A DNA stretch of 64,000 nucleotides from Burkholderiales bacterium. GTDB lineage: Bacteria > Pseudomonadota > Gammaproteobacteria > Burkholderiales > SG8-39. The DNA is taken from positions 11,587-75,586 of the forward strand of contig JBFWRS010000001.1 of assembly GCA_050248795.1 (NCBI GenBank). Reading direction: 5' to 3'. A program made the position numbers and the translations under genes. The notes under the pieces were generated by a model. That model was not told where the DNA came from. It saw only the letters and a program-made list of their open reading frames with translations, and did not search any database. Positions 16,934-40,545 of the stretch are shown piece by piece (within the stretch, counting starts at the first letter, position 1; each line of letters starts with the position of its first letter).

Positions 16934-17257
16934 CTAGACGTTGAAGCTTTCCCCGCAGCCGCACTCGTCCTTCACGTTGGGGTTGCGGAACTTGAAACCC
17001 TCGTTCAGCCCTTCGCGGGTGTAGTCGAGCTCGGTGCCATCTATGTACGGCAGGCTCTTCGGGTCCACCAGCACCCGCACGCCGTGGCTCTCGAACTGCA
17101 CGTCCTCGGGCGACGCCTGGTCGGCAAACTCGAGCTTGTAGGCAAGTCCCGAGCATCCGGTCGTGCGCACGCCCAGGCGCAGGCCGTAGCCCTTGCCGCG
17201 CTTCTGCATGAAGCCCTGGACGTGGTTGGCGGCCTTCTCGGTAAGCGTGATCGACAT
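16934..17257 (-). CDS. iscA: Fe-S cluster assembly protein IscA
   Basis: 107 aa with GCSGLAY...CGCGESF. Confidence 0.95.
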
Positions 17258-17262
17258 GGCTT

Positions 17263-17673
17263 TCAGGCCGCCTCTGTTTCAGCCTTCTGCGGCGCGCCGT
17301 GCTTCTTGCGGTAGTCCTCGACCGCGGCCTTGATGGCGTCCTCCGCGAGGATGGAGCAGTGGATCTTCACCGGCGGCAGCGCGAGTTCCTCGGCGATCTG
17401 CGTGTTCTTGATCGTCGCCGCCTCGTCCAGCGTCTTGCCCTTGACCCATTCGGTCACCAGCGAGGACGATGCGATCGCCGAGCCGCAGCCATAGGTCTTG
17501 AAGCGCGCGTCCTCGATGACGCCGTCAGGCCCCACCTTGATCTGAAGTTTCATCACGTCGCCGCAGGCCGGGGCGCCGACCATGCCGGTGCCCACGGACT
17601 CGTCGCCCTTTTCGAAGGCGCCGACGTTGCGCGGATTTTCGTAGTGATCGATGACCTTGTCGCTGTATGCCAT
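17263..17673 (-). CDS. iscU: Fe-S cluster scaffold IscU
   Basis: [18 protein letters not shown]...[11 protein letters not shown]...[11 protein letters not shown]...LPPVKIHCS. Confidence 0.95.
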
Positions 17674-21744: not shown

Positions 21745-22019
21745 AGCTGCGCATCATGGTTCTCGCTGCCGCGCTGCTGCTCGCGGCCTGCGGCTCGAAG
21801 CTGAGCGAGGAGAACTTCGCCAAGGTGAAGGAAGGCATGAGCGAGCAGGAAGTCATCGCCATACTCGGCACGCCTGCCGAAACGAACAGCGTGCAGATCC
21901 TCGCCGTGTCCGGCACCTCGTCGACCTGGAAGGACGACACTGCGACGGTGTCGATCCAGTTCGTCAACGGCCAGGTACGGCTGAAGTCCTACTCGAAAGC
22001 GCGGGCCGCCGCTAAGTAG
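21741..22019 (+). CDS. small lipoprotein (BamE/SmpA-OmlA-like fold likely)
   Basis: Lipobox LLLAACG and [16 protein letters not shown] wording. ATGA overlap with suhB. Confidence 0.65.
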
Positions 22020-22560
22020 CGTCGATGCCGCGCCGTTCGCGCATCGCGCGACCGACGACGGCGAGTTCCGCGTCGGTCAGCAGGCGCGCCGCCATCGGCA
22101 GCAGCTCGCTTTCCTCGCGCGCGATGTGGCGCTCGTAGAGCCCCGCCAGCGCCGCCACGTCCTCCTGCGGCAGGGACACCGGGTTTCCGGCGGCAATCTG
22201 CGCGAGCGGCCCTCGCACCCGCGCCCACAGGATCTCCAGTTCGCGATGCTCAGCGCTGAGCGCCGCGGTGAGCTCGCGGATGCACACCGCGTCCGAGCCG
22301 GCCATCGCCTCGATGAGCGCGGGGAACAGATCCTCTTCCTCGTCCGCGTGATGCTGCGCGCCGGAGGTATCGAAGTAGCGCATCACGCGCGCCGCCGCCG
22401 CGCGCGCTTCGTCGTCGGCGCCATGCGCGGCAACGTGCGGCACCAGCCGTCGCAGCGTCGCGCACTGGCGTTCGACGCGGCCATGGCAGGCAGCAAGCAT
22501 TTCCAGCGGCGCTTCCGGGCCGGCCGCGGGCGTAGGGAATCCGGGAAAATCGTCGCTCAT
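22012..22560 (-). CDS. hemerythrin-domain protein
   Basis: Starts at ATG 22560 (MSDDFPG...). Contains LAACHGRVE...HHADEEEDLFPAL...HIAREESELLP (HHE cation-binding type). Confidence 0.7.
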   Translation of the reverse strand: MSDDFPGFPTPAAGPEAPLEMLAACHGRVERQCATLRRLVPHVAAHGADDEARAAAARVMRYFDTSGAQHHADEEEDLFPALIEAMAGSDAVCIRELTAALSAEHRELEILWARVRGPLAQIAAGNPVSLPQEDVAALAGLYERHIAREESELLPMAARLLTDAELAVVGRAMRERRGIDAT

Positions 22561-22666
22561 CTGCCTGGATCGCCTGTCGTGCCCCGCCGGAAGCATCACG
22601 TGTATCGGAGTGTAAATCATGTAAAACCGCTCGACGTTCGATTGTCGCGTGCGTCAAATAGGCATC

Positions 22667-25844: not shown

Positions 25845-25944
25845 ACGTGCCCCGGATTGCACGCGAAGTGACAAAACGCACCTGAAGCGGAACTGGTTCA
25901 CGGCTTGCGTCTTGCCAGATCGCCGCGCGAGGCGTTAGAAGGGG

Positions 25945-27525
25945 GTGCCACCACCCGACAAGGAGTCTCCGATCGACCAACGTGCGCAGCAGCAGGTGGG
26001 CGACCCGCTCAAGCAGGCGGCGCTGTACAGGACGCTGCTCGGCGTTGACGATGCGCTGATCGGCGCGCACGACGAGGTCGCGATGCTGCAGCGGGTGTGC
26101 GACACCGCGTTCGCCGCGCAAGCCTTTGCCGCCGCATGGGCCAGCCTGAGCCATCCCGCCAGCGGCATCTTCGAGCCTGTCGCGTTCCCCCACAGCCTGG
26201 CGCCGTTCCGGCAACTGGTGCGCTCGCTGCTGCTGGCGTCGAACAGCCGCGACTACTCGCCGACGCGGCACGCGCTGGATTCCGGCGAGGCAAAGTTCGT
26301 GGAGCGCATGCGCGAACTGCCGTGGCCAGCGGCAGCGAAGCCGCTGATCGCGATGTTCGGCATTGGCGGCGTGGCTGCTCTGCCATTGCGCCGCAACGGC
26401 AAGGTCGTCGGCGCGCTCACGCTGTACGTGGCCGAGCCGGACTATTTCGATGCCGACACCCGCCGCGCGCTGGTCTCGATCTCGCGGCGCATCGGGTCCG
26501 CGCTGGACGCGATAGACGCCAACCGCCAGCTGCATCAGGCACTGGCCCGGTTGAGCGCCCGCGAAGCGCAGTTCCGCGCGCTGGTCGAGCAGTCGCTCAC
26601 CGGCATCTACATGATCGAGGGCGCGCGTTTCAGCTATGTGAATCCGCGCCTGTGCGAAATCCTCGGCTATTCCGCCGAAGCGCTGCTGCAGATGGGACCG
26701 CACGATGTGACACTGGAGGAAGACCGCGCGCTGGTGGACACCCAACTGCGCCGCAGGCAGGCGGGCGAACTGGCCGCAGCGCGCTACGAGTTCCGCGTCC
26801 GGCGGCCGAGCGGAGAGATCCGCCACGTCGGCGTGCACGGCTCGGTAGCGGAGATCGACGGACGCCGCGTGATCATCGGCGTGCTGCAGGACATCACCGC
26901 CCGGGTGCAGGCGGAACTACTCGCCAACACGCAGATCGCCCGGCTTGGAAACGCCATGCGCGGTACTGTCGGCGCAGTGTCCCGCATGGTCGAGCTGCGC
27001 GACCCGTACACCGCCGGCCACGAAAGCCGCGTCGCGGCCTTGATGCGCGAGATCGGCCGCACGATGGACTACGCACCGGACCGGCGAGAAGGACTGGAAG
27101 TGATCGGCGGCCTGCACGACATCGGCAAGATCGCGGTGCCCGCCGAGATCCTGGTCAAGCCTTCGAAGCTCACTGGCGCCGAGTTCGACCTGATCAGGGA
27201 GCATCCGCTCCGCGGCTACGAGATCCTCGCCGGCCTGGAGTTTCCCTGGCCGGCGGCGCAAGCAACGCTGCAGCACCACGAACGCATCGACGGCAGCGGC
27301 TACCCGCATGGCCTGAAGGGGACAGACATCCTGCCCGAGGCGCGCGTGCTGGCGGTCGCGGATACGGTCGAGGCAATGGCCTCGCACCGCCCATATCGCG
27401 CCGGCCTTGGCATCGACGCCGCACTCGCCGAGATCGAGCGCGGCCGCGGCAGCGCCTACGATGCAGATGTCGCCGATGCCTGTCTTGCGCTGTTCGGCGA
27501 GAAGGGCTATCGACTCCCGGCCTGA
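25945..27525 (+). CDS. GAF-PAS-HD-GYP signalling protein (c-di-GMP phosphodiesterase type)
   Basis: PAS-like FRALVEQSLTGIYMIEG... then HD-GYP: HESRVAAL...GGLHDIGK...HHERIDGSGYPHGL. Confidence 0.8.
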   Translation: MPPPDKESPIDQRAQQQVGDPLKQAALYRTLLGVDDALIGAHDEVAMLQRVCDTAFAAQAFAAAWASLSHPASGIFEPVAFPHSLAPFRQLVRSLLLASNSRDYSPTRHALDSGEAKFVERMRELPWPAAAKPLIAMFGIGGVAALPLRRNGKVVGALTLYVAEPDYFDADTRRALVSISRRIGSALDAIDANRQLHQALARLSAREAQFRALVEQSLTGIYMIEGARFSYVNPRLCEILGYSAEALLQMGPHDVTLEEDRALVDTQLRRRQAGELAAARYEFRVRRPSGEIRHVGVHGSVAEIDGRRVIIGVLQDITARVQAELLANTQIARLGNAMRGTVGAVSRMVELRDPYTAGHESRVAALMREIGRTMDYAPDRREGLEVIGGLHDIGKIAVPAEILVKPSKLTGAEFDLIREHPLRGYEILAGLEFPWPAAQATLQHHERIDGSGYPHGLKGTDILPEARVLAVADTVEAMASHRPYRAGLGIDAALAEIERGRGSAYDADVADACLALFGEKGYRLPA

Positions 27526-28922: not shown

Positions 28923-29822
28923 ATGTCGTTCGCGAAACCGGTGTTCATGAAGACCACAATATACGGCGAACTCGTGTCAACATCGCAGTCGAACATGACA
29001 CCGATCCGCGCTTGGCTGATGCAGGCCGCGCAGCGCATCGACGCAGCACTCGGCCCGGCGCGCGTCGCGCGCAGCGCGCTTCCGCCGGTGATGAATGACC
29101 CGGGCAAGGAAGGCGAGTTCTGCGCCGTGCAGCTCGACGACGGCAGCGTCGGCCTCGCGTTCGCGATCCTGCAGGACACGCTCCCGACGCTGCACGCGCG
29201 CCTGCCGCCCGGCGTGCTCGCCGGACGCTCCGCGCTGGAGCTCGTGCGCGGCTACGCGTCCGGCGACCTCGCCGCCCGCACCATCGGCCTCGCAACCATC
29301 AACGCCCTCGCCCGCCGCCTCTACGACCGCGCAGGCTTCGTCCCCGGGGATTCCGCCGACTCCTTCTCCGTCACGCTCGCCCGTGGCGACCGCCTCGGCC
29401 TCATCGGGCACTTCCGGCCGCTCATCAGGGAGGCCCGCACCCTCGGCATCCCGGTCACGGTCCTGGAGCTGCGCGCCGAACTCGTCCGCGAAGAACCCGG
29501 GCTCTCGGTCACCCTCGACCCCGCGCGGCTCGCCGCCTGCAACAAGATCGTCTCGACCAGCACCCTCCTGCTCAACGACAGCTTCGAAGCGGTGCGCGTG
29601 CTCTGGAAGAACGCCCAGGAGGTGGCCATCGTCGGCCCTTCCGCCTGCGGCCCGCCCGATCCGCTGTTCGCCGCCGGCGTCTCGGCCGTCGGAACTACCT
29701 GGGTCAGCAATGCCGAAGCGCTTCTCGCGCACGTCGTCGCGGGCGAGAAGTGGGGCGACTCGGCCCGGAAAGTGACTTTCACGCCAGCACGGTATCCGGG
29801 GCTGGACGCGCTGCTCCGCTAG
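28923..29822 (+). CDS. DUF364/DUF4213-type Rossmann-like protein (putative chelatase-like)
   Basis: Real 3' part of the 1241-aa track ORF. Contains LGLIGHFRPL...VTVLELR...IVSTSTLLLN...AIVGPSA...G..W. Start uncertain: 28923, 28947 or later. Confidence 0.55.
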   Translation: MSFAKPVFMKTTIYGELVSTSQSNMTPIRAWLMQAAQRIDAALGPARVARSALPPVMNDPGKEGEFCAVQLDDGSVGLAFAILQDTLPTLHARLPPGVLAGRSALELVRGYASGDLAARTIGLATINALARRLYDRAGFVPGDSADSFSVTLARGDRLGLIGHFRPLIREARTLGIPVTVLELRAELVREEPGLSVTLDPARLAACNKIVSTSTLLLNDSFEAVRVLWKNAQEVAIVGPSACGPPDPLFAAGVSAVGTTWVSNAEALLAHVVAGEKWGDSARKVTFTPARYPGLDALLR

Positions 29823-30039: not shown

Positions 30040-30594
30040 ATGCCAAGAGTCAGCGAAATCGACGACGACGCCGGGGACCTGGTTCTCGCCGAGTTGTTCG
30101 CCAGGGAGCGCGCTTCCTTTGGCGAACTGCTCAACTCGACGCGCGTGATGGCCCATTGCCCGGCGATCTTGCGCGCCGCCAAGCAGCTCGGCGCCGCTAT
30201 CGCGGAATCGGGCCGGCTGCCGAAGGGCCTGGTTGCGCTGGTGTCGCTGCGCGTCGCGGCGATCAACGGCTGCCCGTTCTGAGTCGACATCAACTCCGTC
30301 CGTGTGGCGGAGGTCGAGGGCGGCGCGGCGAAGCTCGCCGAGCTCCCCGCGTGGCGCGAGAGCGGTGCGTTCAGCGAGCTCGAGCGAGCGGCGCTCGAGT
30401 GCGCCGAGCGCATGACCTATACCGGCCAGCGGGTCGACGACGCGCTGTTCGCGCGCTTGCGAGCGCTGCTGGACGACCCGGAGATCGTCGAGCTGGCGGC
30501 CGCAATCGCGCTGGAGAATTTCCGCAGCAAGCTCAACTCCGCGCTAGGCGTGGAGGCGCAGGGCTTTTGCCTGCTGCCGCGGCGCGAGCGATGA
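30040..30594 (+). CDS. AhpD/carboxymuconolactone-decarboxylase family protein, probable selenoprotein (Sec at 30280-30282)
   Basis: Track ORFs 30040..30282 and 30304..30594 are in the same frame. The TGA replaces the second Cys of the family CxxC (INGCPF-TGA-VDIN), and the downstream part (AWRESGAFSELERAALECAERMT) continues the same fold. Confidence 0.7.
30284..30317 (+). promoter_or_regulatory. SECIS-like hairpin immediately 3' of the in-frame UGA
   Basis: UCGAC (30284-88) pairs with GUCGA (30313-17), followed by a 5-nt bulge. CUCCGUC (30294-300) pairs with GGCGGAG (30306-12). The loop CGUGU (30301-05) contains GU and starts 19 nt after the UGA. Confidence 0.6.
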
Positions 30595-31456
30595 GCCCGC
30601 GGAGGTGGCCGCTGTCCTGCGGCTGCTTGGCGACATGCCGCAGCCCGGTCAGCGCGGGCATGAGCAGCTTAGGATCGGCGTCCTCCGCGTAGACTGCGTA
30701 GGCTGGATAAAGGAACTCCGGGGCGCCCCGCACGAGCTTCAGCTTGCCCGTACGCAGATAGGGCGCGGCGGCGTGCTGGCGGAAGTAGCCTGAGCCGCCC
30801 GCGCGCAGGATGTACTGCAGGCCGAGCGGACCGAGATCCACGTAGGTGCCGGGACTGGAGAGTTCGGGGTAGGTGAGATTGTGCTGCGTGGCGAACTCCG
30901 GGCCCCAGTCCACGTAGATGTAGTCGCCGCCACGCACCGCCTTGCCGCGGGTGGTGACGAGGAGCAGCTTCTCTTTCATCAGCAGCTCCACTTTCAACCC
31001 GGGCCGCTGCTGCGGCGTGTACAGCACGCCGATATCGACGATGCCTGCCCCGACCTGGTCCATGAGCTGCTGCGGCAGCGCGACGCGGGCGCGCACGGCG
31101 AGCTCGGGCACCGAGCGCCTCATCCACACCATCCACTCGAGCAGCAGGGGATCCCACAGGCTGAGCTCGCCAGCCACTGCGATGACCGCGCGCCGCCCGT
31201 GCGGCACCGCGACCTGGTGGCGCGCGCGCTCCCAGAGCTGCACCAGCGAGGGGGCAAAGCGCAGGAACTCCTCGCCCGCCGCGGTGAGCGCAGCGCCGGA
31301 CTTGCTGCGCTCGAACAGCTTGCGCCCGAGAAGCGATTCGAGCTTGCGCACGCGCACGCTCACGGCAGTCTGCGTGACGTGCAGGCGCTCTGCGGCGCGG
31401 ATGAAGCTGCCGCTGCCGACGATCTCCAGAAAGGTGCGGGCGAGGGCGATCTCCAT
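30533..31456 (-). CDS. LysR-family transcriptional regulator
   Basis: N-terminal HTH MEIALARTFLEIVGSGSFIRAAERLHVTQTAVSVRVRKLE plus a LysR substrate-binding domain. Divergent from sodB. Confidence 0.9.
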   Translation of the reverse strand: MEIALARTFLEIVGSGSFIRAAERLHVTQTAVSVRVRKLESLLGRKLFERSKSGAALTAAGEEFLRFAPSLVQLWERARHQVAVPHGRRAVIAVAGELSLWDPLLLEWMVWMRRSVPELAVRARVALPQQLMDQVGAGIVDIGVLYTPQQRPGLKVELLMKEKLLLVTTRGKAVRGGDYIYVDWGPEFATQHNLTYPELSSPGTYVDLGPLGLQYILRAGGSGYFRQHAAAPYLRTGKLKLVRGAPEFLYPAYAVYAEDADPKLLMPALTGLRHVAKQPQDSGHLRGLIARAAAAGKSPAPPRLARS

Positions 31457-31579
31457 GCTGGTCCTCCGTTCGGACTTATATAACCGATAGTTTACTTAAA
31501 CAAGATTTAGTTTCGTTTTACTTCACAAAGCACTGAGGCCATGATCGACGGCACTAGAACCGACGCGCCTGGAGAGCCC

Positions 31580-32212
31580 ATGCCACTGACCTTGCCTTCA
31601 CTGCCCTACGAGCACGCCGCACTCGCGCCGTTCATGTCGGACGCAACGCTCAAGCTGCACCACGGCGTGCACCACGCCGGCTACGTGGATCGGGTGAACG
31701 CGCTCGCCCGCGGCACCGCGCTGGCGGACTTGCCGTTGCGCTCGATCGTCGAGCGCAGCGCGCGCGACCCGGCGGCGCGTGGCCTGTTCAACAGCGCGGC
31801 GCAGGCCTGGAATCACGACTTCTTCTGGCGCTCGCTGCGCCCCGCCGGGGAGCGGTCAGCGGTGCCTGCGCGCCTGGCGGCGCGCATCGCGAAGGATTTC
31901 GGCGGCCAGGAGCGTCTGATCGCGCTGCTCAAGAGCACGGCGCTCTCGGTCTTCGGCAGCGGCTGGGTGTGGCTGATCGAGCGCGACGGGCGCCTGCGCG
32001 TCGAAGCGACGGCGAACGCCGACGGCCCGATCGTGTCCGGCGGCGTACCCGGCCTCGTGATCGACGTCTGGGAGCACGCGTACTACCTCGACTACCAGGC
32101 TCGGCGCGCGGACTACGTCTCCGCGGTGATCGAGCACCTGCTCGACTGGGATTTCGCCGAGCGCAACCTGTTCGCCAACCAGCGGGAACGAGGCCATGAG
32201 GCCAACGTGTGA
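31580..32212 (+). CDS. sodB: Fe/Mn superoxide dismutase
   Basis: LPSLPYEHAALAPFMS...LHHGVHHAGYV...WNHDFFW...DVWEHAYYLDYQ. ATG at 31580. Confidence 0.9.
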   Translation: MPLTLPSLPYEHAALAPFMSDATLKLHHGVHHAGYVDRVNALARGTALADLPLRSIVERSARDPAARGLFNSAAQAWNHDFFWRSLRPAGERSAVPARLAARIAKDFGGQERLIALLKSTALSVFGSGWVWLIERDGRLRVEATANADGPIVSGGVPGLVIDVWEHAYYLDYQARRADYVSAVIEHLLDWDFAERNLFANQRERGHEANV

Positions 32213-32586
32213 AGCGTGGCTCGCCCAAGCGGGTACAGGTCAAGTCCGTCGCCGTGCGCGCGGAACCGCAGGACGGCATGCGGGTCCTGGTGGAGCGGCG
32301 CTGGCCGCGCGGGGCGTACCGACAGGGTGCAGCCATCGACCTGTGGCTGCGGGATGCCGCGCCGAGCCCCGCGCTGTCCCTGTGGTACCGCCGCTACCCG
32401 CGACGCTGGAAGCGCTTCCGCCATTGCTATTGGGCGGAGCTCGCGAGGCGGCCGCGCATCGTGCACCTGCTCGAGGATCTGCGGCGGCGCACTCCCGTGA
32501 CACTGCTATTTGGCGCGCAGGACGATTCGCGCAACCACGCGGAACTGCTGCGCGAGTTCATTGACCGTAAAGGAGATCTGCCATGA
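32209..32586 (+). CDS. DUF488 family protein
   Basis: VLVERRWPRG...DLWLRDAAPSPAL..W......W..F...Y..EL......LLFGA.D...NHA. GTGA overlap with the sodB stop. Confidence 0.7.
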   Translation: MKRGSPKRVQVKSVAVRAEPQDGMRVLVERRWPRGAYRQGAAIDLWLRDAAPSPALSLWYRRYPRRWKRFRHCYWAELARRPRIVHLLEDLRRRTPVTLLFGAQDDSRNHAELLREFIDRKGDLP

Positions 32587-33281
32587 AAGCCAGAGACATC
32601 ATGACTTCGCCGGTGATCACCGTCGCGCCCGAGACCACTGTGAAAGAGGTCGCGACGCTGCTCTACGAGTGCCGCATCGGCGCGCTGCCAGTCGTGCAGG
32701 ACGGAAGCGTGGTCGGGATCGTGAGCGAGTCAGACCTGCTACGCCGCCACGAGATCGGCACCGATCGCTTCGAGCGTGCCGGATCGTGGTGGCTGTGCCT
32801 GTTCGGGACGGACGGGTCCCTGCATGACTACGTGCGCTCCCATGCGCGCTTCGCGCGCGACGTGATGACACGCGGGGTGGTGACCGTCACGCCCGATACG
32901 TCGCTCGCGGAGACCGCGCAGTTGCTCGAAGGCCGCAGGATTGGTCGCGTGCCTGTCGTGGACGCCGGCAAGCTCATCGGCATTGTGAGCCGCGCAAACC
33001 TGGTCCAGGCGCTCGCGGCGCGCGCGCCCGCGCCCGCCGAGCCGCAAGCCGTGGATGACGAGAGCATCCGGCGCGCACTGCTCGAGGAGCTGGAGCGTCA
33101 GACGTGGTGGCGCATCGATCGCGCGGCCGTGCTGGTCACCAACGGCGTGGTGCAATTCCAGGGCATGGTTGACACCGACGCCGGCCGTCCGGCCGCGCGC
33201 GTGGCGGCCGAGAATATCCCCGGCGTGCGCGCCGTGGAGGATCACCGTTTCCTCAGCTCGAACGCGCCCACGATGACATGA
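32583..33281 (+). CDS. CBS-pair plus BON domain protein
   Basis: Two CBS motifs (ARDIMTSPVITV...GALPVV, ARDVMTRGVVTV...GRVPVV) and a C-terminal BON-like VVQFQGMVD...AAENIPGVRAVED. ATGA overlap upstream. Confidence 0.8.
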   Translation: MKARDIMTSPVITVAPETTVKEVATLLYECRIGALPVVQDGSVVGIVSESDLLRRHEIGTDRFERAGSWWLCLFGTDGSLHDYVRSHARFARDVMTRGVVTVTPDTSLAETAQLLEGRRIGRVPVVDAGKLIGIVSRANLVQALAARAPAPAEPQAVDDESIRRALLEELERQTWWRIDRAAVLVTNGVVQFQGMVDTDAGRPAARVAAENIPGVRAVEDHRFLSSNAPTMT

Positions 33282-33324
33282 GCGCGAGCGGCCTTTCCTC
33301 AACGTCATCCCCAAGGAGACAGTC

Positions 33325-33897
33325 ATGCATTCGTTCCTGACCATCGCCGATCCCCACGCAGCGCGCAGGATGTTTCTTGCGCGCTCGGGCCTCGTCCTTT
33401 CGGGCGCGGCCGTCGCGCTGCTCGCCGGCCGCGACGCGCTCGCCGCGCGCAGCGGCGCCGGCCGCGCCGACGACGTGCGAATCCTGAACACCGCGCTCGG
33501 CGCGGAGCACGAGGCGGTGGCCGCCTACCAGCTCGGCGCCGAGAGCGGCCTGCTGGAGAAGCCGGCGCTCTCGCTCGCGCTGCAATTCCAGGGCCACCAC
33601 AAGGAGCACGTCGAGCTGCTCGCGCAGACCGTGCGCAAGCTCGGCGGCAGCGCGGTGTCGGCGCGCTCCAAGTACGATTTCCCCGCGCACCAGCTGAAGA
33701 CCCAGGCCGATGTGCTGCGCTTCGCGGCGCAGCTCGAGCGCGGCGCGGTAAGCGCGTACCTCGGCGCGGTTCCCCTGTTCGGCAACCGCGACCTCGCCAA
33801 GGCCGCGGCGAGCATCCTCGGCGACGAAGCGATGCACTGGGCGGTCCTGCGCAACGCGCTAGGCGAGGACCCTGTTCCGGTCGCGTTCGTGTCGTGA
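33325..33897 (+). CDS. Tat-signal ferritin-like domain protein
   Basis: Twin-arginine-like ARRMFLARSGLVLSGAAVALLAG, then ferritin-like helices LNTALGAEHEAVAAY, QGHHKEHV, ERGAVSAY and GDEAMHWAVL. Confidence 0.65.
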   Translation: MHSFLTIADPHAARRMFLARSGLVLSGAAVALLAGRDALAARSGAGRADDVRILNTALGAEHEAVAAYQLGAESGLLEKPALSLALQFQGHHKEHVELLAQTVRKLGGSAVSARSKYDFPAHQLKTQADVLRFAAQLERGAVSAYLGAVPLFGNRDLAKAAASILGDEAMHWAVLRNALGEDPVPVAFVS

Positions 33898-34277
33898 CTG
33901 CGGCGCCGCTTGCGCTCGCCGTGGTCCTGGCGCTCGCCGCGCTGCCCGCGGCGGGGGACGAGGCGCGCGGCGAGCAGGTGTACGCGCGCTGCCTCGCCTG
34001 CCACGCGCTCGCCTATGACCGGGTCGGGCCGCGCCACTGCGGCCTGATCGGCCGGCGCGCCGGCACGGTCCCGGGGTTCGCGTACTCGGAGGCGATGCGG
34101 CAGTCGGGAATCGTGTGGAGCGCGAAGACGATGGATCGCTTCCTGGCCGATCCGTCGGGTGTGGTACCCGGTACGACGATGACCTACGCGGGAGTCCCGG
34201 ATGCACGCGATCGCGCCGATCTGATCGCGTACCTTGCGCGCGCGGGTCGTTCCCCCGAATGCAGCGCGTCGCGATGA
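33894..34277 (+). CDS. class I c-type cytochrome
   Basis: Signal peptide, heme site CLACH, distal Met region GTTMTY. GTGA overlap with the ferritin-like gene. Confidence 0.8.
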   Translation: MTAAPLALAVVLALAALPAAGDEARGEQVYARCLACHALAYDRVGPRHCGLIGRRAGTVPGFAYSEAMRQSGIVWSAKTMDRFLADPSGVVPGTTMTYAGVPDARDRADLIAYLARAGRSPECSASR

Positions 34278-34289
34278 TGGTGCCGTGAC

Positions 34290-34643
34290 GTGATCCACAT
34301 CAAGCGCACCTACGAGCCGCGGGAGAAATCTGACGGGCGCCGCATTCTGGTGGAGCGGCTGTGGCCGCGCGGCATGAGGAAGGAGGCCCTTGCGGCCGAC
34401 GCCTGGGCGAAGGACGTCGCTCCCAGCACCAAGCTGCGCAAGTGGTTCGGGCACCGGGGGGAGCGATGGGCCGAGTTCAGGCGCCGATACCGTACCGAGC
34501 TGGACACGGTTCCCGCCGCGTGGGCGCCGATTCTGGAGGCGGCTGCGCGGGGACGCGTGACGCTGCTCTACAGCGCGCGCGATACCGTTCACAATTGCGC
34601 CGTCGTGCTGCAGGAGTACCTCGGCGAAAGGGCGAAGCGATGA
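34290..34643 (+). CDS. DUF488 family protein (second copy)
   Basis: GTG start. IHIKRTYEP....DG.RILVERLWPRG...AWAKDVAPS..LRKWF.H....W.EF...Y..EL. Confidence 0.75.
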   Translation: MIHIKRTYEPREKSDGRRILVERLWPRGMRKEALAADAWAKDVAPSTKLRKWFGHRGERWAEFRRRYRTELDTVPAAWAPILEAAARGRVTLLYSARDTVHNCAVVLQEYLGERAKR

Positions 34644-34951
34644 CCACGCACCCGGCTGACGTTTCGATCGTCGGCGGCGCACCGAAGCCTGCTGCCCCGA
34701 GCCTTCTCGAGAAGGTTCTGCGCAGCCTCTCCGTGATCACCATGCTGCTGACCGTGCCGCAGGTGCTGGCGGTGTGGGTCGGACCGCATCCCGGCGGCGT
34801 CTCGCTCGTATCCTGGGTCGCGTACCTGGTCGCCGCGTGCCTGTGGTTCGTCTACGGGCTGCAGAGGCGCGACAAGACGATCTACCTCGCCTGCGTCGGC
34901 TGGGTCGTGCTGGATGCGGCGATCGTGGCCGGCGTGATCGTGCGCACCTGA
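34640..34951 (+). CDS. small 3-TM membrane protein, PQ-loop/SemiSWEET-like
   Basis: 103 aa with three hydrophobic segments. The first carries the motif LLTVPQVLAVW. ATGA overlap upstream. Confidence 0.45.
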   Translation: MTTHPADVSIVGGAPKPAAPSLLEKVLRSLSVITMLLTVPQVLAVWVGPHPGGVSLVSWVAYLVAACLWFVYGLQRRDKTIYLACVGWVVLDAAIVAGVIVRT

Positions 34952-34991
34952 AACCGGCGCAACTTCTGGCTTGGCGCGAGGTCATTCAAGT

Positions 34992-35663
34992 ATGGTAAGT
35001 GCTTCTATCGCCTTAGAGGAAGACCCGTCGCGCACTCCAGTGATGCTGTCGCTCCCCGTGCGTGCGCGGCTGCTCGACGCCCTCCTAGCGGGAGGAATCG
35101 GCCTGGCGCACGAATGCGGCGGCAAGCTGGCCTGCGCGACCTGCAGGGTCATCGTGCGCGAAGGCAGCGCCCATCTGGAGCCGGCGAGCGAAGACGAGCT
35201 GGACATGCTGGACGCCGCGGGCGTTCTGGCTCCGCAAGCACGCCTCGCATGCCAGGCGATCGGCCTTGGCGGCGACGTGGTGATCGAGATCCCGCTGATC
35301 GAAGCGGCGCCGCCCGTCGCGATCGCCGCGGGACCCGCGCTTCCCGTTGCGCTCACCGAGCACGCGGCGAGGCACATCGCGTCGCAGCTCGCGAGCCGGC
35401 CGGCTGGGGCCGCCGTGCGCCTCGGCGTCTCGCCCGCGGGCTGCTCGGGTTTCCGCTACCGCCTCGAGTTCGCCGACGCGATCCGCGAGAACGACGTGGT
35501 CTTCGAGAGCCGCGGCGTGCGCATCGCGGTCGAGTCCTCCAGCCTGCCGCACGTGCAGGGGACGAGGCTCGACCTGGTGCGGGAAGGGCTCGCCCGGCGC
35601 CTTCGCTTCGACAACCCGAACGTGCGCAGCACCTGCGGGTGCGGCGAGAGCTTCGGGGTATGA
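34992..35663 (+). CDS. fusion protein: [2Fe-2S] ferredoxin (Fdx/adrenodoxin type) N-terminal domain + IscA/HesB A-type carrier C-terminal domain
   Basis: The N-terminal half has ECGGKLACATCRV...RLACQ (4 Cys ligand pattern of Fdx-type ferredoxins). The C-terminal half has LTEHAARHI...GCSGFRY...CGCGESFGV. Compare iscA and fdx in the same window. Start is ATG 34992 or TTG 34971. Confidence 0.75.
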   Translation: MVSASIALEEDPSRTPVMLSLPVRARLLDALLAGGIGLAHECGGKLACATCRVIVREGSAHLEPASEDELDMLDAAGVLAPQARLACQAIGLGGDVVIEIPLIEAAPPVAIAAGPALPVALTEHAARHIASQLASRPAGAAVRLGVSPAGCSGFRYRLEFADAIRENDVVFESRGVRIAVESSSLPHVQGTRLDLVREGLARRLRFDNPNVRSTCGCGESFGV

Positions 35664-35664
35664 C

Positions 35665-35877
35665 ATGCAGGACGTCGAGCGCTTTCGCATCGGATTCCTC
35701 GTGACGCGCGACGGCGAGGCGGCGGCTGCGGCCTGGGTGCGGCGCACGCTCGCGATCTATCGGCGCGCGGTTCTCGACCCGAAGCATTTCGCGAGCAAGC
35801 CCGACTACCGGCACCTGTTCCTCGCCTCCTGCGCGGAGTTCAGGCGCTGGCTCGCCAAGCGGACGCTCCCGTGCTGA
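35665..35877 (+). CDS. small hypothetical protein
   Basis: 70 aa, starting 1 nt after the fusion-gene stop. Real 3' part of track ORF 35347..35877. No family recognised. Confidence 0.4.
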   Translation: MQDVERFRIGFLVTRDGEAAAAAWVRRTLAIYRRAVLDPKHFASKPDYRHLFLASCAEFRRWLAKRTLPC

Positions 35878-36026
35878 GCCAGGACGAAAAGCTGGACGAG
35901 GCGCTGAAGGACACGTTTCCTGCGAGCGACGCCTTCTACCTCGCACCGGATGACACGCGCGCAGCCGTGAGCGGGCAAGCGAGTACCCCGGGGCCATGCA
36001 TCGCACCCGCCGACCAATCAGGATGA
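35871..36026 (+). CDS. very small hypothetical protein (51 aa) with DEALKDTFPASDA motif
   Basis: Not in the track because it is under 60 aa. The GTG start overlaps the upstream stop by 7 nt. The motif resembles small conserved proteobacterial proteins that I recall only loosely. Confidence 0.3.
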   Translation: MLSQDEKLDEALKDTFPASDAFYLAPDDTRAAVSGQASTPGPCIAPADQSG

Positions 36027-36121
36027 AGCAGTCGCCGGACTCCGGTTTTGACGTAGCTCAATGTACCCTCGCGTTCACGGGATACCATTGCGAAACAGCG
36101 TTTTCAGCATAGGAGGATCCC

Positions 36122-36574
36122 GTGACAGTCGCCATCCCGCTCCCTCTCAAGAAGGAGCACAACGAACTCCACGAGGAGCTCGTACGTGCTACGAAGGAGC
36201 CCGGCGCGGTAGGCGAGGCCGCGAAGAAGGTCGCGCGCCTCCTCCATCCCCACTTCGTATCCGAGGAAGAATATGCCCTTCCGCCGCTCGGGCTGCTGGC
36301 GGCCGTCGCGCGCGGCGAGACGCCGGCTGAAGCCGGGCAAGGGCTTGCTATGGCCGAACGGCTTCGCAAGGAGTTGCCGCGGATGCTCCAGGAACACGGC
36401 GCAATCGTCGAGGCGCTCGCGGAGTTGAGCGAGGCCGCGCAGCGCGAGAGCAAAGCCTGGGTCGTGCGCTTCGCGGAGAATCTCACGCTGCATGCCCAGA
36501 CCGAGGAGGAAGTCCTCTACCCAGCGACGCTGGTTCTCGGAGAGATCCTTCGGCGCCGAGGCGTCAAAGGCTGA
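36122..36574 (+). CDS. hemerythrin-like (HHE-type) domain protein
   Basis: LKKEHNELHEEL...LLHPHFVSEEEYALPPLG...LQEHGAIVEAL...LHAQTEEEVLYPA. Confidence 0.6.
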   Translation: MTVAIPLPLKKEHNELHEELVRATKEPGAVGEAAKKVARLLHPHFVSEEEYALPPLGLLAAVARGETPAEAGQGLAMAERLRKELPRMLQEHGAIVEALAELSEAAQRESKAWVVRFAENLTLHAQTEEEVLYPATLVLGEILRRRGVKG

Positions 36575-36877: not shown

Positions 36878-36937
36878 GGTGGCAGTGTAGGTCGTCGCGA
36901 CATCGAGCCTCCCGAGGTGTCGACCTACACCGCCACC
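36878..36937. repeat. 17-bp near-perfect inverted repeat with 26-nt spacer
   Basis: GGTGGCAGTGTAGGTCG (36878-36894) versus the reverse complement of CGACCTACACCGCCACC (36921-36937) matches at 16 of 17 positions. The right arm contains the 12-mer GACCTACACCGC. Confidence 0.85.
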
Positions 36938-37134
36938 GACACTGAAGAGCCCGACAAGGACTTGCAAGGTCTTGCCCAGACATGCCCGGATAAGCGGTCC
37001 GTGAAGGCCTGATTCCTTTGGAACGACAAAACCTCAAAGCGCAGAACGGCAGCGCCGACAAGACCCTGGGTCAGGTCGGAATCTCTGCCCACACTCCGGT
37101 GATGCAGCAGCGTTTTTTCCCTATGAGAATTGGC

Positions 37135-37170
37135 GTAGGTTTGGGTGACCTACACCGCGACCTACACCGC
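37135..37170. repeat. short hairpin plus perfect tandem 12-mer (GACCTACACCGC x2)
   Basis: GTAGGT (37135-40) N7 ACCTAC (37148-53), then GACCTACACCGC at 37147-37158 and again at 37159-37170. Confidence 0.85.
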
Positions 37171-37323
37171 TAATACTTGTCCAGTCTTGAACATCACGCG
37201 GTAACCATGCCTCCGCGCAGCGGCCGCAATCGGCCAGAAGCAGTCGTTCGCTGCCAAAATGATGCTTTGCGTCAGCACTTTCACCTCGTGCGCTTTGTTT
37301 ACGCAGGCCCGGATTTCGTAGGC

Positions 37324-39340
37324 CTACACCTTAAGTAGTTCATCGCATTGCCGGGTGATGTGTTCCGGCACTGAATCGAATCGGCGCGGATTCAACTGCA
37401 TGATGTATTCGTTCTCCACGTGGTAAGTCTCGTTGATATATTTCTTCACCAAGTCGTTATCCGGCACATCTGGTGTAACGATTCGGAATAGCTGCAACTT
37501 CTCATACCGATTCTTCGTCGCTTTATAGGCCGCGAGCATCTGTGCCTCATCTTTGACTCGGGCCAAGAGCTGAGCGTAGTCGAACGTCGACAACTTTTCC
37601 TTAATCCGCGCGGTGGCCTTTTCAATTTCCGCCGCCGTCATCGCTGTCCCGTCAGCTCTGGTCGGTAGTTCGCGCTTATGTAGAAGGCTCGACAGTAGGT
37701 TGTACTCATCTCCCTTATCGTCAGCGATTTCGTAGTTTCGCCGCAGATACACCAATTGGATGATCGGTTCGTTTACGGCCTGGAGATTCTCGCTGCAGAT
37801 CTGGCCGAACGACACGATATCGACCTTCGTAACAGGTAGCTCGGCTATGTGCCCGCTCTGCGCGGTTAGAAACGACGCGAGCGGCATGGGCTGGAAGCTG
37901 GCTCCGACGGTCTTGACTAGATCAATTACCGGCTCAATGTCGTGTGTAAGCATCAAGGCAGTGCGACCCTGAAAGCTATCCTTGCCTCGGAACAGCGTAG
38001 TCAAGATCGCGAATTTCTTGGTCTTATCAAATGACGAAATCGGATCGTCTAGAACGACTAAGTCGGGATTCTTCGTAAGGCAGTCGTACATGAAGAGGAC
38101 GAGCGCGAAAGCGTTCTTTTCGCCATAGCTGAGATGTGCCCCGCCGTTTTCTATGTAGTTGGCGAAATCCTCATGCTTGAGCTTCATCTTGTACGTCACA
38201 CCATCCAACTGAATATCGACCGCGTATCGGTAGCCAGCATTTCGCAGAAAGGTGTTTATCTCGGCTTTGTACTTGCCGATTGTTTTCTCAATAGCATGCT
38301 TCTGTTTGTTCACCTCCCCTTGTAGCTGTCCGGCCTTTGCCAGGACCTTATCCAAGCATTTGTTCACCTCATCCACTATCTTGCGGGTCGATTCCGCGTT
38401 GACGTGATGGAGAAGCGAGAGGTCTATTTTCATGTCGGAAAGAATCTGTTGAGCCTCTTGGACTTTCTCTATCTCACGCAAATAGAAGAACGAAATGCCC
38501 TTGGCACTACCTAGTTTTCCGCGCAGCGTATCCGTCTGGGCCTTGATCTCCTTCAGGTAGTTGATGGCCTCTGCGCTTGGTGCCTGGTGATGCCGCAAGA
38601 TCTCTTCTAGCTTCTTCAAAGTTTCGGCGCTGAAGTAAGTTCCTAAGCGCGAGACAATGCCCTGCAGCGCCACGAGATGTTCTATTGCTTTAGCGTCATA
38701 CTCGTCAGCGACGGCGAGGATGGTGTCCTTCTTATCGGCGGTAGGAGCCGTACAGAACGGACAGTTGTCCGACAGACCTAAGAACTCCTTACCTTGAAGC
38801 TGCCACTTAATCCACTGTATATTTGTGGGACTCTTAATGAAGTCGCTATAGCCCGTTAGCTTCTCTGGGACGTGCTCTAGTTTGTTTCCCTTAGCTAGTC
38901 CACGCGCAATTCGTCCGGACTTCGCATAGCCAGATTGCGACTTGCCAAAGCTCTCACTTAATGCAAGCAAGTCATTTATTACGCGATCAATGTCTTCATT
39001 CTTGCGAAAGATCTGCTGGATATCTTCAACCATTCCTTCGATCTCTTTCATCTTCGTGTCGTAATCGGCGTTGCGGACGAAGATGTCGAAGCTGTTCTTT
39101 ACGAGTTCATCCGGTTGAAAGACGAACTGGCTTATATAGCCTTCGTTGAACGTCGCCACCGACTTGAAGCCATCCGCCCCTTGTACTTGGGGTTGTTTGT
39201 CTGCTGATTTGTCGCCGCGAAATTTGAACGGCTGAAGTTCGGCCAGCTTCGCGCCTCCGCCTTCGGCGTTCAAGGCGATCGCTTTGGCAATCGTGCTCTT
39301 TCCCACACCATTCGGGCCGTACTTGACATTAAGTCGCCCC
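37324..39340 (-). pseudogene. 5'-truncated AAA_13-type (RloC/PrrC-like, Rad50-like) ABC ATPase, cut by the IS3 element
   Basis: In-frame codons GRLNVKYGPNGVGKST (Walker A) run directly into the IS end at 39341 with no N-terminus left. A CPFC zinc-hook-like motif sits in a long coiled-coil insert. Also present: LSYGEKNAF signature, LVVLDDPISSFD Walker B and MLTHD H-loop. GC is clearly lower than the surroundings. Confidence 0.75.
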
Positions 39341-39406
39341 TGAGCTGCCCGGCTTTTTCTGTACCAGGTTGAGTGTTGTAGTGTTCAACGTGGAAGGAGA
39401 AGGCGC

Positions 39407-39685
39407 ATGGCGAATAAAAAGTATAGCCCGGAGCAGGCGGTGGCGAGGCTTCGGCAGATCGAAGTGCTGCAGGCAGGGGGCAAGTCGATTCCGGCGGCAT
39501 GCAAGGAAGCGGGGATCACGGATGTCACGTACTACCGCTGGAGGAAGGAGTACGGCGGGCTGAAGGTGGACCAGGCCAGGAAGTTGAAGGACCTGGAGCG
39601 CGAGAACCAGCGGCTTAAAAAGTTGGTGGCGGACCTGTCGCTGGAGAAGGCGATCCTGAAGGACGTGGCCGAGGGAAACTTCTGA
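39407..39685 (+). CDS. IS3 transposase OrfA (HTH + leucine zipper)
   Basis: 92 aa with ...[57 protein letters not shown]. Confidence 0.9.
39673..39679 (+). promoter_or_regulatory. -1 programmed ribosomal frameshift heptamer G GGA AAC
   Basis: X XXY YYZ pattern in the orfA frame, 4 nt before the orfA stop. The orfB frame is open from here. Confidence 0.6.
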
Positions 39686-40545
39686 GCCCCGAGCGGCGGC
39701 GCAAAGCCGTCGCGCATGCTCGGGGCAAGTACGGTGTGTCGGAGAGGAAGGCCTGTGCGGTGCTCGCGCAGCCCAGAGGCACGCAGCGCTACGTGCCGAC
39801 GGTGCGAGCCGACGAGGACCTGCTCACGCAGGCGATCGTGCGCTTGGCGTGCCAGTACGGGCGCTACGGCTACCGGATGGTCGCCGGGATGCTCAGGTAC
39901 GGCGGCTGGCGGGTGGGCGAGGAGCGGGTACACCGGATCTGGAGGAAGGAAGGGCTGAAGGTGCCCAGGAAGCAAAAGCCCCGCGGGCGGCTGTGGCTGA
40001 ACGATGGCAGCTGCATACGGCTGAGAGCCGAGCGGGCGAACCACGTGTGGAGCTACGACTTCGTGACGACCTGGACGCACGACGGGCGGGTGCTGAGGCT
40101 CTTGACGCTGATCGACGAGTACACGCGCGAGTGCCTGGCGATCATGGTGGCAAGGAGCATCGGCGCGCAGCAGGTGATCGAGCTGCTGGCCGAGGTGATG
40201 TTGCGCAGGGGAATCCCGGAACACATCCGCTCGGACAACGGGCCGGAGTTCACCGCCAAGGTGCTGCGGCAGTGGTTGGGGCAGATCGGCGCGAACACGC
40301 TTTACATCGCGCCGGGCAGCCCGTGGGAGAACGGCTACTGCGAGAGCTTCAACGGCACGCTGAGGGATGAGCTGCTGAACGGGGAGATCTTCTACAGCCT
40401 TAACGAGGCGCGGATCGTGATCGAGCGCTGGCGGCGCGAGTACAACGAGGTGAGGCCGCACAGCTCGCTGGGCTACAGGCCGCCGGCGCCGGCGGCCTGT
40501 AGCCACTACCCCGCTGCGCTCGATGAGCCGCAGGCTATGCAGTAA
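39673..40545 (+). CDS. IS3 transposase OrfB frame (DDE integrase core), expressed as an OrfAB fusion by -1 frameshift
   Basis: The -1 frame reads ...[30 protein letters not shown]... Later come WSYDFV (D), IRSDNGPEF (D) and [16 protein letters not shown] (E). Confidence 0.85.

Follow-up and report, generated by a model that had tools for sequence, protein, structure and literature searches.

A sodB-led gene cluster of an uncultured soil Burkholderiales bacterium appears to be a deletion-streamlined mosaic of separately conserved modules

Introduction

Proteins of the Ferritin_2/DUF4439 family, among them RvFeMP-1, Deinococcus DRB0118, plant PCC13-62 and Mycobacterium tuberculosis Rv2844, are exported, stress-linked four-helix bundles with a buried di-metal site (PMC11616004). 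RvFeMP-1 and DRB0118 are metabolite phosphatases, the family has been linked to desiccation tolerance, and the metal ligands of RvFeMP-1 are Glu51, Glu90, His93, Glu132, Asp135 and Asp162 (PMC11616004). In mitochondria, FDX2 supplies the electrons with which two [2Fe-2S] clusters are fused reductively on ISCA1-ISCA2, as stated in that part of PMC9313013 which cites Weiler et al. (2020). Relatives of both systems occur together in the stretch of DNA analyzed here, 64 kb of about 67% GC from a Burkholderiales bacterium (contig JBFWRS010000001.1; hereafter the window), in which eleven plus-strand open reading frames (ORFs) are packed into positions 31580-36574, starting with the superoxide dismutase gene sodB and preceded by a divergent gene for a LysR-type regulator.

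An earlier note had read this cluster as a possible oxidative-stress or iron/Fe-S-repair module that pairs a periplasmic couple of ferritin-like protein and cytochrome c with cytoplasmic cluster-handling proteins, and had remarked that no described system of such a composition is known. None was found in the searchable literature, and the general theme fits both the gene content and the stress-type neighbors seen in relatives; the idea of one co-conserved unit did not survive comparison. With a confidence only just above even, we propose that the locus is a lineage-specific, deletion-streamlined stress operon of uncultured soil Burkholderiales that combines three or more modules, each conserved on its own, and is probably read from a LysR-controlled sodB promoter. 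On this view it is a variant of the LysR-linked antioxidant operon, made up of known families; it offers a useful lead but does not amount to a new system.

Results

Gene order, junctions and co-conservation

The junctions listed in the earlier note proved exact when the coordinates were re-checked. Overlaps of 4 nt join sodB to the first DUF488 gene (DUF488a; GTGA at 32209), DUF488a to the CBS-BON gene (ATGA at 32583), the ferritin-like gene to the cytochrome c gene (GTGA at 33894) and the second DUF488 gene (DUF488b) to the gene for a three-transmembrane (3-TM) protein (ATGA at 34640), the two small genes small1 and small2 overlap by 7 nt at 35871, and the gaps in the operon are 43, 12, 40, 1 and 95 nt long, of which the 40-nt gap shrinks to 19 nt with an upstream TTG start. 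The note had eleven ORFs following sodB; eleven is the correct total, and ten of them come after sodB. All eleven have coding-type composition (GC3 of 0.73-0.91 versus GC2 of 0.42-0.61). Nine of the eleven have family matches in Pfam and NCBIfam, which support the domains assigned previously, the match of the 3-TM PQ-motif protein lying below the family cut-off. A promoter and terminator scan, which is weak and uninformative at 67% GC, returned nothing, and in particular no intrinsic terminator-like site inside the operon block. Across the whole window no Rfam match came up to the gathering score of its family, and the operon proteins gave no matches in a PADLOC scan. The overlaps, their conservation in the closest relative and the lack of terminator-like sites would indirectly favor a single transcript for the block.

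The close homologues were all encoded in metagenomes of soil, sediment or sludge or in metagenome-assembled genomes (MAGs) of uncultured Burkholderiales or Betaproteobacteria; relatives' contigs from genome assemblies and metagenomes are designated here by L numbers. When co-conservation of the gene set was checked across these loci, as the earlier note had suggested, it largely failed: the order found in the window is shared only by the close relatives L085 and L177 and partly by L003 and L108, all of which carry extra genes. L177, the closest relative, has the same order from DUF488a to an FNR-like gene, with acs upstream of DUF488a, and shares the -4 and -7 overlaps of the window; identities are 96% for the ferritin-like protein, 88% for CBS-BON, 92% for the 3-TM protein, 84% for the ferredoxin-IscA fusion, 89% for small1 and 92% for small2. 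In L085, a LysR gene is divergent from a series that reads SOD, DUF488, CBS-BON, DUF6306, NMO, extracytoplasmic function (ECF) sigma factor, ferritin-like protein, cytochrome c, DUF488, 3-TM protein, hemerythrin, fusion and small1, followed by SdhC, SdhD, an SdhB-like protein, CDGSH, an FNR-like protein and qNOR. Here identities amount to 75% for LysR, 68% for SOD, 67% for CBS-BON, 82% for the ferritin-like protein, 78% for cytochrome c, 82% for DUF488b, 77% for the 3-TM protein, 71% for the fusion and 77% for small1. The order in L108 is divergent LysR, SOD, acs, DUF488a, sigma factor, ferritin-like protein and cytochrome c.

Shorter runs of genes recur elsewhere. The series DUF488b, 3-TM protein, hemerythrin, fusion, small1 and small2 is represented in L003, L085 and L177, the 3-TM protein, fusion and small2 in L006, and the fusion with small2 behind it in L014, L015 and L086. 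A hemerythrin gene lies directly upstream of the fusion gene in L003, L015, L085, L087 and L177. The ferritin-like and cytochrome c genes are found 1-8 kb from the fusion gene, on the opposite strand, in L009, L013, L019 and L087; of the 18 genome loci with a full-length fusion, three have the pair nearby, in each case on the opposite strand. The commonest downstream neighbors of the fusion gene are two Sdh_cyt genes and an SdhB-like gene (L005, L007, L012, L082, L085, L177), which do not occur in the window. Stress-type neighbors in related loci are Hsp33, OsmC, Usp, TerD, qNOR, CDGSH and a probable AhpD-like selenoprotein. Because co-conservation of the set fails, we regard the pairing of periplasmic couple and cytoplasmic cluster handlers as a lineage-specific juxtaposition of independent modules; judged by gene order, the eleven genes do not co-evolve as a single system.

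Deletion scars and the ancestral operon

As reconstructed from these relatives, the ancestral order is a divergent LysR gene and then SOD, acs, DUF488, CBS-BON, DUF6306, NMO, ECF sigma factor, ferritin-like protein, cytochrome c, DUF488, 3-TM protein, hemerythrin, ferredoxin-IscA fusion, small1, small2, SdhC, SdhD, SdhB-like protein, CDGSH and FNR-like protein. On this comparison the compactness of the window is the product of three deletions, and its 4-nt overlaps date back to the long operon. One deletion is recorded in the chimeric 3' end of sodB (32183-32212, plus strand), in which the last nine codons and the stop encode RERGHEANV. The DNA of this tail matches the acs tail of L177 (score 25) and not the native SOD tail of L108 (score -6). 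Therefore acs, the gene for acetyl-CoA synthetase, was deleted in frame, and the GTGA overlap of sodB and DUF488a is the old acs/DUF488a junction, the overlapping start of DUF488a being likewise of acs origin. In L108, acs is still present between SOD and DUF488; the stretches compared are 6296-8837 in L108 and 1-1158 in L177. L085 shares the fusion of SOD to the acs 3' end. Remnants of 68 aa with an ACAS_N domain follow SOD in L091-L096, which suggests that acs has been eroded repeatedly and independently at this locus.

The 43-nt spacer between the CBS-BON and ferritin-like genes (33282-33324) is a second scar. It joins the sequence that follows CBS-BON in L177, ending in ATGACATGAGCGCGAG, to the sequence that precedes the ferritin-like gene there, CGGCCTTTC...AAGGAG...ATG, and by this alignment about 2.2 kb with DUF6306, NMO and the ECF sigma gene was lost cleanly at a GCGnGAG microhomology. 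The third lies in the 40 nt between the 3-TM and fusion genes (34952-34991), a remnant of a hemerythrin 3' end that matches the L177 hemerythrin gene preceding the fusion; the deleted internal hemerythrin gene stands between the 3-TM and fusion genes in L003, L085 and L177. The tail of Sdh-like, CDGSH and FNR-like genes that follows small2 in relatives is absent from the whole window, where small2 is followed by a different hemerythrin gene, encoding 150 aa, and then by a block of low GC content.

The Sdh_cyt-Sdh_cyt-SdhB-like trio of L005, L007, L012, L082, L085 and L177 has no adjacent SdhA-type flavoprotein gene and often has a CDGSH gene and one for an NAD_binding_1 reductase of the FNR-like kind after it. 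In L082, L085 and L086 a nitrile-hydratase-like set of three genes and an OYE flavoprotein gene are close to it. The trio is a predicted, uncharacterized membrane Fe-S complex.

The ferritin-like protein, its cytochrome c and the ECF sigma factor

The ferritin-like di-metal protein (33325-33897, plus strand, 190 aa) belongs to Ferritin_2 (PF13668)/DUF4439, with an E value of 2.1e-36 and 125.5 bits against a Pfam cut-off of 24.7. Its leader AARRMFLARSGLVLSGAAVALLAG contains an RR-x-F-L motif of the twin-arginine translocation (Tat) type followed by a hydrophobic stretch, R14, R15 and F17 being invariant, and the protein is a predicted Tat substrate destined for export. The structure model has helices at 47-73, 81-105, 127-151 and 155-178, as in a four-helix bundle. 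Alignments show E61, H92-x-x-H95, E138 and E168-x-x-H171 to be invariant. An invariant H92-K-x-H95 thus replaces ExxH in helix B, and the site deviates from the canonical E/ExxH/E/ExxH pattern. A Foldseek search with the model returned RvFeMP-1 (8kce/8w9k) and Rv2844 as the nearest solved structures and then Bfr/Dps. Although family, fold and predicted export are shared with the Ferritin_2 relatives named above, the ligand set of RvFeMP-1 is not preserved: in the HMMER alignment Glu90 is replaced by His92, Asp135 by Ala141 and Asp162 by Glu168, giving E/HxxH/E/ExxH here versus E/ExxH/ExxD/D in RvFeMP-1. The protein further differs from these relatives in its Tat signal, its obligate cytochrome c partner and the ECF sigma gene usually found upstream, and its identity to RvFeMP-1 is about 25%. 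The family is very abundant in soil metagenomes, with at least 6,851 homologues, the top 120 of which are 76-94% identical.

Two other assignments were considered and discarded. A lead to the tardigrade Mn-peroxidase AMNP was dropped, AMNP (g12777) being a beta-sandwich and the PDB match RvY_06210 being RvFeMP-1 itself. The label "rubrerythrin" given to the family by JGI is unsupported, as there is no Rubrerythrin or rubredoxin Pfam match and the mature protein is free of cysteine.

The overlapping downstream gene (33894-34277, plus strand) encodes a class I cytochrome c of 127 aa, c550/c2-like and with predicted Sec-dependent export, which has a CLACH heme motif, a distal Met in TTMTYAG and a hydrophobic N-terminus. 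It scores 25.1 with Pfam Cytochrom_C (cut-off 21.3) and reaches 1.2e-26 with the CycA c550 model, below the cut-off of the latter. The association is strict. Among 80 loci at 72-82% identity retrieved from metagenomes with the ferritin-like protein as anchor, a cytochrome c gene was directly downstream in 63 of the 63 testable loci, and 49 of 57 had an ECF sigma gene immediately upstream. Twelve loci extended 5 kb or more to either side, and all of these had sigma factor and cytochrome c; CBS-BON and the fusion were each present in one and SOD or DUF488 in none. The window retains the ferritin-like and cytochrome c genes and has no ECF sigma gene upstream of them, nor was a sigma homologue found anywhere in its 64 kb.

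The complete triad is present on a plasmid of the cultured Variovorax sp. RA8, annotated there as a sigma factor, a ferritin-like domain protein and a cytochrome c family protein, with a gene for a hemerythrin of 69% identity and an FNR-like gene beside it. In Ralstonia syzygii, the gene for the ferritin-like homologue points away from an ECF sigma/anti-sigma pair of another kind and has no cytochrome gene after it. The triad is abundant in soil Betaproteobacteria (L087-L176, L178). Its sigma gene is not followed by a gene for a membrane anti-sigma factor, and the sigma protein has a short conserved C-terminal extension, AFAFAG.RCDR.V..VL.RL. The arrangement resembles ECF sigma envelope stress modules in that the pair lies directly 3' of an ECF sigma gene in relatives, as also illustrated by the sigma/anti-sigma genes of R. 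syzygii, and departs from them in that the triads have no membrane anti-sigma gene after the sigma gene and the sigma gene is deleted in the window. No relevant description of a system of ECF sigma factor, ferritin-like protein and cytochrome c was found in the searchable literature. The Tat leader implies export after metal loading and the obligate c550-type partner implies electron transfer. We therefore favor the view that the pair would form a periplasmic, cytochrome c-linked di-metal oxidoreductase that most likely reduces peroxide or a related oxidant.

The ferredoxin-IscA fusion protein

A second unit centers on a fusion protein of 223 aa (34992-35663, plus strand) with an N-terminal [2Fe-2S] ferredoxin (Fer2) and a C-terminal A-type carrier of the IscA kind (Fe-S_biosyn). 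Its cysteines C42, C48, C51 and C87 in the ferredoxin half and C151, C215 and C217 in the IscA half are invariant in 23 sequences. The ferredoxin half has the C-x5-C-x2-C-x35-C pattern and scores 46.6 with Fer2 (cut-off 21) and 66.6 with the fdx_isc equivalog model, below the cut-off of 132.1. The IscA half contains the C...C-G-C ligands and scores 99 with the A-type carrier model TIGR00049 (cut-off 58.8), while it falls short of the housekeeping equivalog TIGR02011 (116.6 versus 150.6 bits) and is encoded outside an isc operon. Housekeeping isc genes are present in the window about 18 kb upstream, with iscA at 16943-17314 and fdx at 14129-14395, both on the minus strand, and the halves of the fusion are 44-46% identical to their products. 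The fusion is thus like IscA and Fdx of the ISC system, and like ISCA1-ISCA2 and FDX2, in that its halves are paralogous to iscA and fdx and have the same ligand sets, and unlike the ISC proteins in being one polypeptide encoded elsewhere, with both halves below equivalog cut-offs.

Of 577 relatives in a genome scan with the fusion as anchor, 80 were kept, 18 of them full-length fusions and the others ordinary iscA genes of isc operons. Among the kept genome-assembly loci, the full-length fusion occurred only in MAGs of uncultured Burkholderiales or Betaproteobacteria, and the exact protein of the window is also encoded on a 6-kb Logan contig (L001). It recurs in the company of the small proteins, of hemerythrins or of SdhCD/SdhB-like genes. 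Judging from its recurrent neighbors (hemerythrins, an SdhB-like potential client, CDGSH), it may build or deliver clusters during oxidative or nitrosative stress, or else serve a dedicated client. No paper describing such a fusion was found in the searchable literature.

LysR regulator, control region and superoxide dismutase

The earlier note had also pointed to a divergent LysR gene across an AT-rich spacer, and both are indeed present. The regulator (30533-31456, minus strand, 307 aa) has HTH_1 and LysR_substrate domains and not a single cysteine. Its best NCBIfam match is HdfR, below cut-off, and OxyR is absent from the 25 best NCBIfam matches shown. The LysR gene is likewise divergent from SOD in L085 and in L108, the L108 copy being 72% identical. 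The control region (31457-31579) comprises 123 bp at 48% GC, with a core at 31470-31530 of 30% GC, compared with 67% for the window. An operator-like block, TTAGTTTCGTTTTACTTCA, is located at 31507-31525 and contains T-N11-A. It is near-invariant in an alignment of the window, L085 and L108, in which the remainder of the spacer has diverged, and a related half-site, TAGTTTACTT, is situated upstream at 31489-31498. The block is a plausible, predicted LysR operator, and on this evidence LysR-SOD with its operator-like block is a third conserved unit. A divergent LysR gene, a T-N11-A block and an AT-rich spacer before an antioxidant gene are features of OxyR-type operons; unlike OxyR, however, the regulator is free of cysteine and has HdfR as best family match. 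An OxyR-type thiol switch was therefore rejected.

The product of sodB (31580-32212, plus strand, 210 aa) is a superoxide dismutase of the Fe/Mn family with Sod_Fe_N (77.1, cut-off 27) and Sod_Fe_C (103, cut-off 20.9) domains and the metal-ligand motifs LHHGVHH, AQAWNH and DVWEHAYY. It is a divergent protein with a chimeric C-terminus and scores 161.5 bits with the FeSOD equivalog (cut-off 348) versus 135.6 with that for MnSOD (cut-off 363), so that the predicted metal type leans toward Fe.

Remaining proteins of the cluster

Both DUF488 proteins, copy a (32209-32586, 125 aa) and copy b (34290-34643, 117 aa), are best described by PF22752, the "inactive DUF488-N3" subclade, with E values of 3.2e-29 and 1.3e-43; as members of DUF488 they reach 76.9 and 110.9 bits (Pfam cut-off 22.2). 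Copy a is 81% identical to its counterpart in L177 and 58% to that in L085, and copy b is 100% identical to NCBI protein P0241 of a Burkholderiales MAG. The structure model of copy b is confident (pLDDT 94) and gave no significant fold match in the PDB. Literature searches for DUF488, YeaO and DUF488-N3 returned nothing functional, in line with the earlier remark that the two copies have no assigned function. A placement of DUF488 in the SGNH clan was a false text match to DUF4886 and was not used. Homologues of 73-76% identity adjoin OsmC/AlkA or CstA in other genomes, and because close homologues occupy such unrelated contexts DUF488 has no fixed partner. In two unrelated genomes, DUF488 homologues lie near DNA glycosylase genes, of the AlkA type in L180 (5001-6845) and of the uracil-DNA glycosylase family in the Variovorax locus L178 (8093-8716 and 14115-14564), and many homologues have C-terminal tails rich in Arg, Lys and Ser. 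This proximity and the basic tails may hint at nucleic-acid binding.

The CBS-CBS-BON protein (32583-33281, 232 aa) matches Pfam CBS in two stretches and BON. The SemiSWEET-like 3-TM protein (34640-34951, 103 aa) has three hydrophobic segments and a TVPQV motif; it reaches 1.5e-12 and 47.6 bits with SemiSWEET_3 (cut-off 100) and 18.6 with MtN3_slv (cut-off 23.7). Its gene overlaps DUF488b by 4 nt in L001, L085 and L177 and is also upstream of the fusion gene in L003. The two tiny ORFs reported before are real genes, conserved in other loci despite the lack of any family match in profile searches. The product of small1 (35665-35877, 70 aa) has matches in 232 representative clusters at E<=1e-3, almost all of them free-standing proteins of 65-100 aa, and small1 follows the fusion gene in L003, L005, L085 and L177. 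The protein encoded by small2 (35871-36026, 51 aa) carries the N-terminal motif EEKLDEALxxTFPASDAF, kept in five other loci in a motif scan, and tblastn located small2 after the fusion gene in L003, L006, L014, L015, L086 and L177. Both are called genes in L177. All of these genes, like those of the preceding modules, lie on the plus strand. No role is assignable to CBS-BON, either DUF488 protein, the SemiSWEET-like protein, small1 or small2.

Hemerythrins, the end of the operon and upstream neighbors

The last gene (36122-36574, plus strand) encodes a hemerythrin-like di-iron protein of 150 aa that scores 36.1 bits with Pfam Hemerythrin (cut-off 25.3). With 19.5 bits for TIGR03652 (cut-off 204.7), it falls far short of the RIC/YtfE repair proteins, and the generic Hemerythrin domain is all that is recognized. 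Homologues of 58-59% identity are encoded directly upstream of the fusion gene in L015 and L087. A further hemerythrin of 213 aa, encoded at 22012-22653 on the minus strand, is 64% identical to the hemerythrin inside the operon of L085; the "deleted" type thus survives elsewhere in the genome. The operon is ended by an inserted block of low GC content (36900-40545, GC 0.46-0.56). It contains a 5'-truncated AAA_13/PADLOC PDC-S06 gene (37324-39306, minus strand; E 2.7e-261, from model position 32), whose P-loop GPNGVGKST lies upstream of any start codon and just past a stop, and, abutting it, an IS3-type transposase (approximately 39407-40545; rve and HTH_21, with HTH_Tnp_1 in L001). The block looks like an IS-disrupted defense gene that replaced the operon tail.

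Outside the operon, convergent with the LysR gene and overlapping its 3' end, lies a gene for an AhpD/CMD-family, YciW-related protein (30040-30594, plus strand). It has an in-frame TGA at 30280-30282 in the place of the second redox cysteine (AAC GGC TGC CCG TTC TGA GTC, INGCPF-TGA), and read-through would generate a C-P-F-U (CxxU) motif. The Pfam CMD match covers the N-terminal half of the gene, the read-through protein matches NF053654 with an E value of 3.9e-36 over 175 of 179 positions and its AhpD core domain scores above cut-off, and L085, L003 and L086 have the same pair of split ORFs. The TGA is followed by a putative SECIS hairpin, whose folding is not superior to that of shuffled sequences (z = -0.36). 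The gene probably encodes a selenoprotein, as read from these features. Further upstream are genes for a GAF-PAS-HD (HD_5) signaling protein (25939-27525, plus strand) and a DUF364/DUF4213 "putative heavy-metal chelation" protein (28959-29822, plus strand), with a Rieske oxygenase and an FAD monooxygenase between and around them.

Discussion

Most likely, the locus would function as a LysR-driven operon for oxidative and nitrosative defense and Fe-S maintenance. LysR probably binds the operator-like block and would respond to a ligand, not through a thiol switch. With the ECF sigma gene gone, the ferritin-like and cytochrome c genes would be read through from upstream, and because of this loss the periplasmic pair would now depend on the LysR/sodB promoter. 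In the cytoplasm, the probably Fe-type superoxide dismutase would remove superoxide. The ferredoxin-IscA protein would be an A-type carrier with a built-in one-electron donor that builds or delivers [4Fe-4S] clusters by reductive coupling of [2Fe-2S] clusters, like FDX2 acting on ISCA1-ISCA2, and the hemerythrin-like protein may sense O2 or NO or supply iron. In the periplasm, the Tat-exported, pre-metallated four-helix-bundle protein would exchange electrons with its dedicated c550-type cytochrome and, in a role analogous to that of rubrerythrin or cytochrome c peroxidase, most likely reduce peroxide or some other oxidant. The likeness to these is one of function only and consists in a di-metal carboxylate/His center, a dedicated one-electron donor and a location that fits peroxide removal. 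Unlike rubrerythrin, the ferritin-like protein has no rubredoxin domain and is periplasmic instead of cytoplasmic, its donor being a separate c-type cytochrome.

Several points weigh against this interpretation. Functional coupling between the modules is weak, because the set is not co-conserved beyond close relatives, and the ancestral acs, NMO and Sdh-like genes are metabolic and not obviously defensive. The regulator is closer to HdfR-type proteins than to any known stress regulator, and the 95-nt gap before the last hemerythrin gene may hold a promoter of its own. The model of the ferritin-like protein is moderately confident overall (pLDDT 75.8), and its nearest characterized Ferritin_2 relatives are metabolite phosphatases and not redox enzymes. 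Co-transcription, LysR control and stress induction are all points that we infer from the DNA.

The phosphatase relationship leads to a different view, in which the locus is a desiccation or dormancy island, the Ferritin_2 protein is a secreted di-metal metabolite phosphatase like RvFeMP-1 and DRB0118, and CBS-BON, hemerythrin and the Usp, TerD and Hsp33 neighbors serve survival in dry or hypoxic soil. The nearest solved relatives, the phosphatase activity shown for RvFeMP-1 and DRB0118 and the tie of their family to desiccation tolerance (PMC11616004) agree with it, as do the origin of all sources from soil or sediment metagenomes and the BON, CBS, Usp and TerD genes nearby. We nevertheless give it little credence: the bridging Glu90 has become an invariant H92, Asp135 an Ala, and helix D carries ExxH, the identity to RvFeMP-1 is just about 25%, and a coupled c-type cytochrome, obligate in 63 of 63 loci, would have no role beside a phosphatase. 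In another account, the cluster is not a defense operon but the remnant of the accessory and maturation part of an alternative membrane electron-transfer complex. In relatives, the fusion and the small proteins would mature the downstream SdhB-like three-cluster subunit, encoded with SdhC/D-like anchors, CDGSH and an FNR-like reductase. Electrons would also pass through the cytochrome c as part of this path, and in the window loss of the complex to the IS/defense insertion would have orphaned its helpers. In six loci the fusion gene is directly followed by two Sdh_cyt genes and a Fer2_3/Fer4 gene (L005, L007, L012, L082, L085, L177), with the same genes adjacent but inverted in L009; CDGSH and NAD_binding_1 recur in L003, L005, L008, L085, L177 and L091-L096; and in the window, which lacks Sdh-like, CDGSH and FNR-like genes throughout its 64 kb, the low-GC block occupies the expected place. 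Against this stand the many fusions without Sdh-like genes (L002, L004, L008, L010, L011, L014-L018, L086, L087) and the lack of a consistently present SdhA-like flavoprotein, and the fusion in the window is not decaying, because its cofactor ligands are intact and it is 84% identical to that of L177. We consider this account unlikely.

It is also conceivable that there is no functional unit at all, that unrelated small genes were brought next to each other by accident and compacted by deletions, and that the overlaps reflect genome streamlining. The modules are separate in most genomes, DUF488 homologues occupy unrelated contexts, three deletions and an IS insertion mark a locus in flux, and acs and NMO were mixed with stress genes in the ancestral operon. 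Chance alone, however, is insufficient to explain why the same families (SOD, DUF6306, CBS-BON, hemerythrin, CDGSH/FNR-like, ferredoxin-IscA, ferritin-like protein/cytochrome c) recur around both anchors in varied order and orientation and at fusion identities of 55-100%, for example in L009, L013, L019, L087, L091, L108, L114, L127, L138, L172 and L178, and the window has its overlaps in common with L177. Mere accident thus seems improbable to us, and the streamlined stress operon of independent modules is the interpretation that we retain.

A bolder proposal, possible but on balance doubtful, holds that the triad represents a novel type of cytochrome c-dependent di-metal oxidoreductase in the periplasm, acting as peroxide or oxidant reductase or as metal oxidase, and that the ferredoxin-IscA protein is a "Rosetta stone" for direct feeding of ferredoxin electrons, in bacteria just as in mitochondria, to an A-type carrier that makes [4Fe-4S] clusters, a self-sufficient unit dedicated to stress. 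The analysis isolates two tractable, widespread and unstudied units, the pair of ferritin-like protein and cytochrome c, available in a cultured Variovorax, and the ferredoxin-IscA fusion, which would offer a single-protein system for ferredoxin-driven [4Fe-4S] assembly on A-type carriers. For genome scans, the lesson is that tight packing and overlaps alone define no functional system, and here are traces that deletions have left in a mosaic operon once longer. If the proposed function holds, a soil bacterium has rewired its defense genes, and deletion of a dedicated ECF sigma factor would have handed control of a periplasmic redox pair to the cytoplasmic LysR/SOD promoter.

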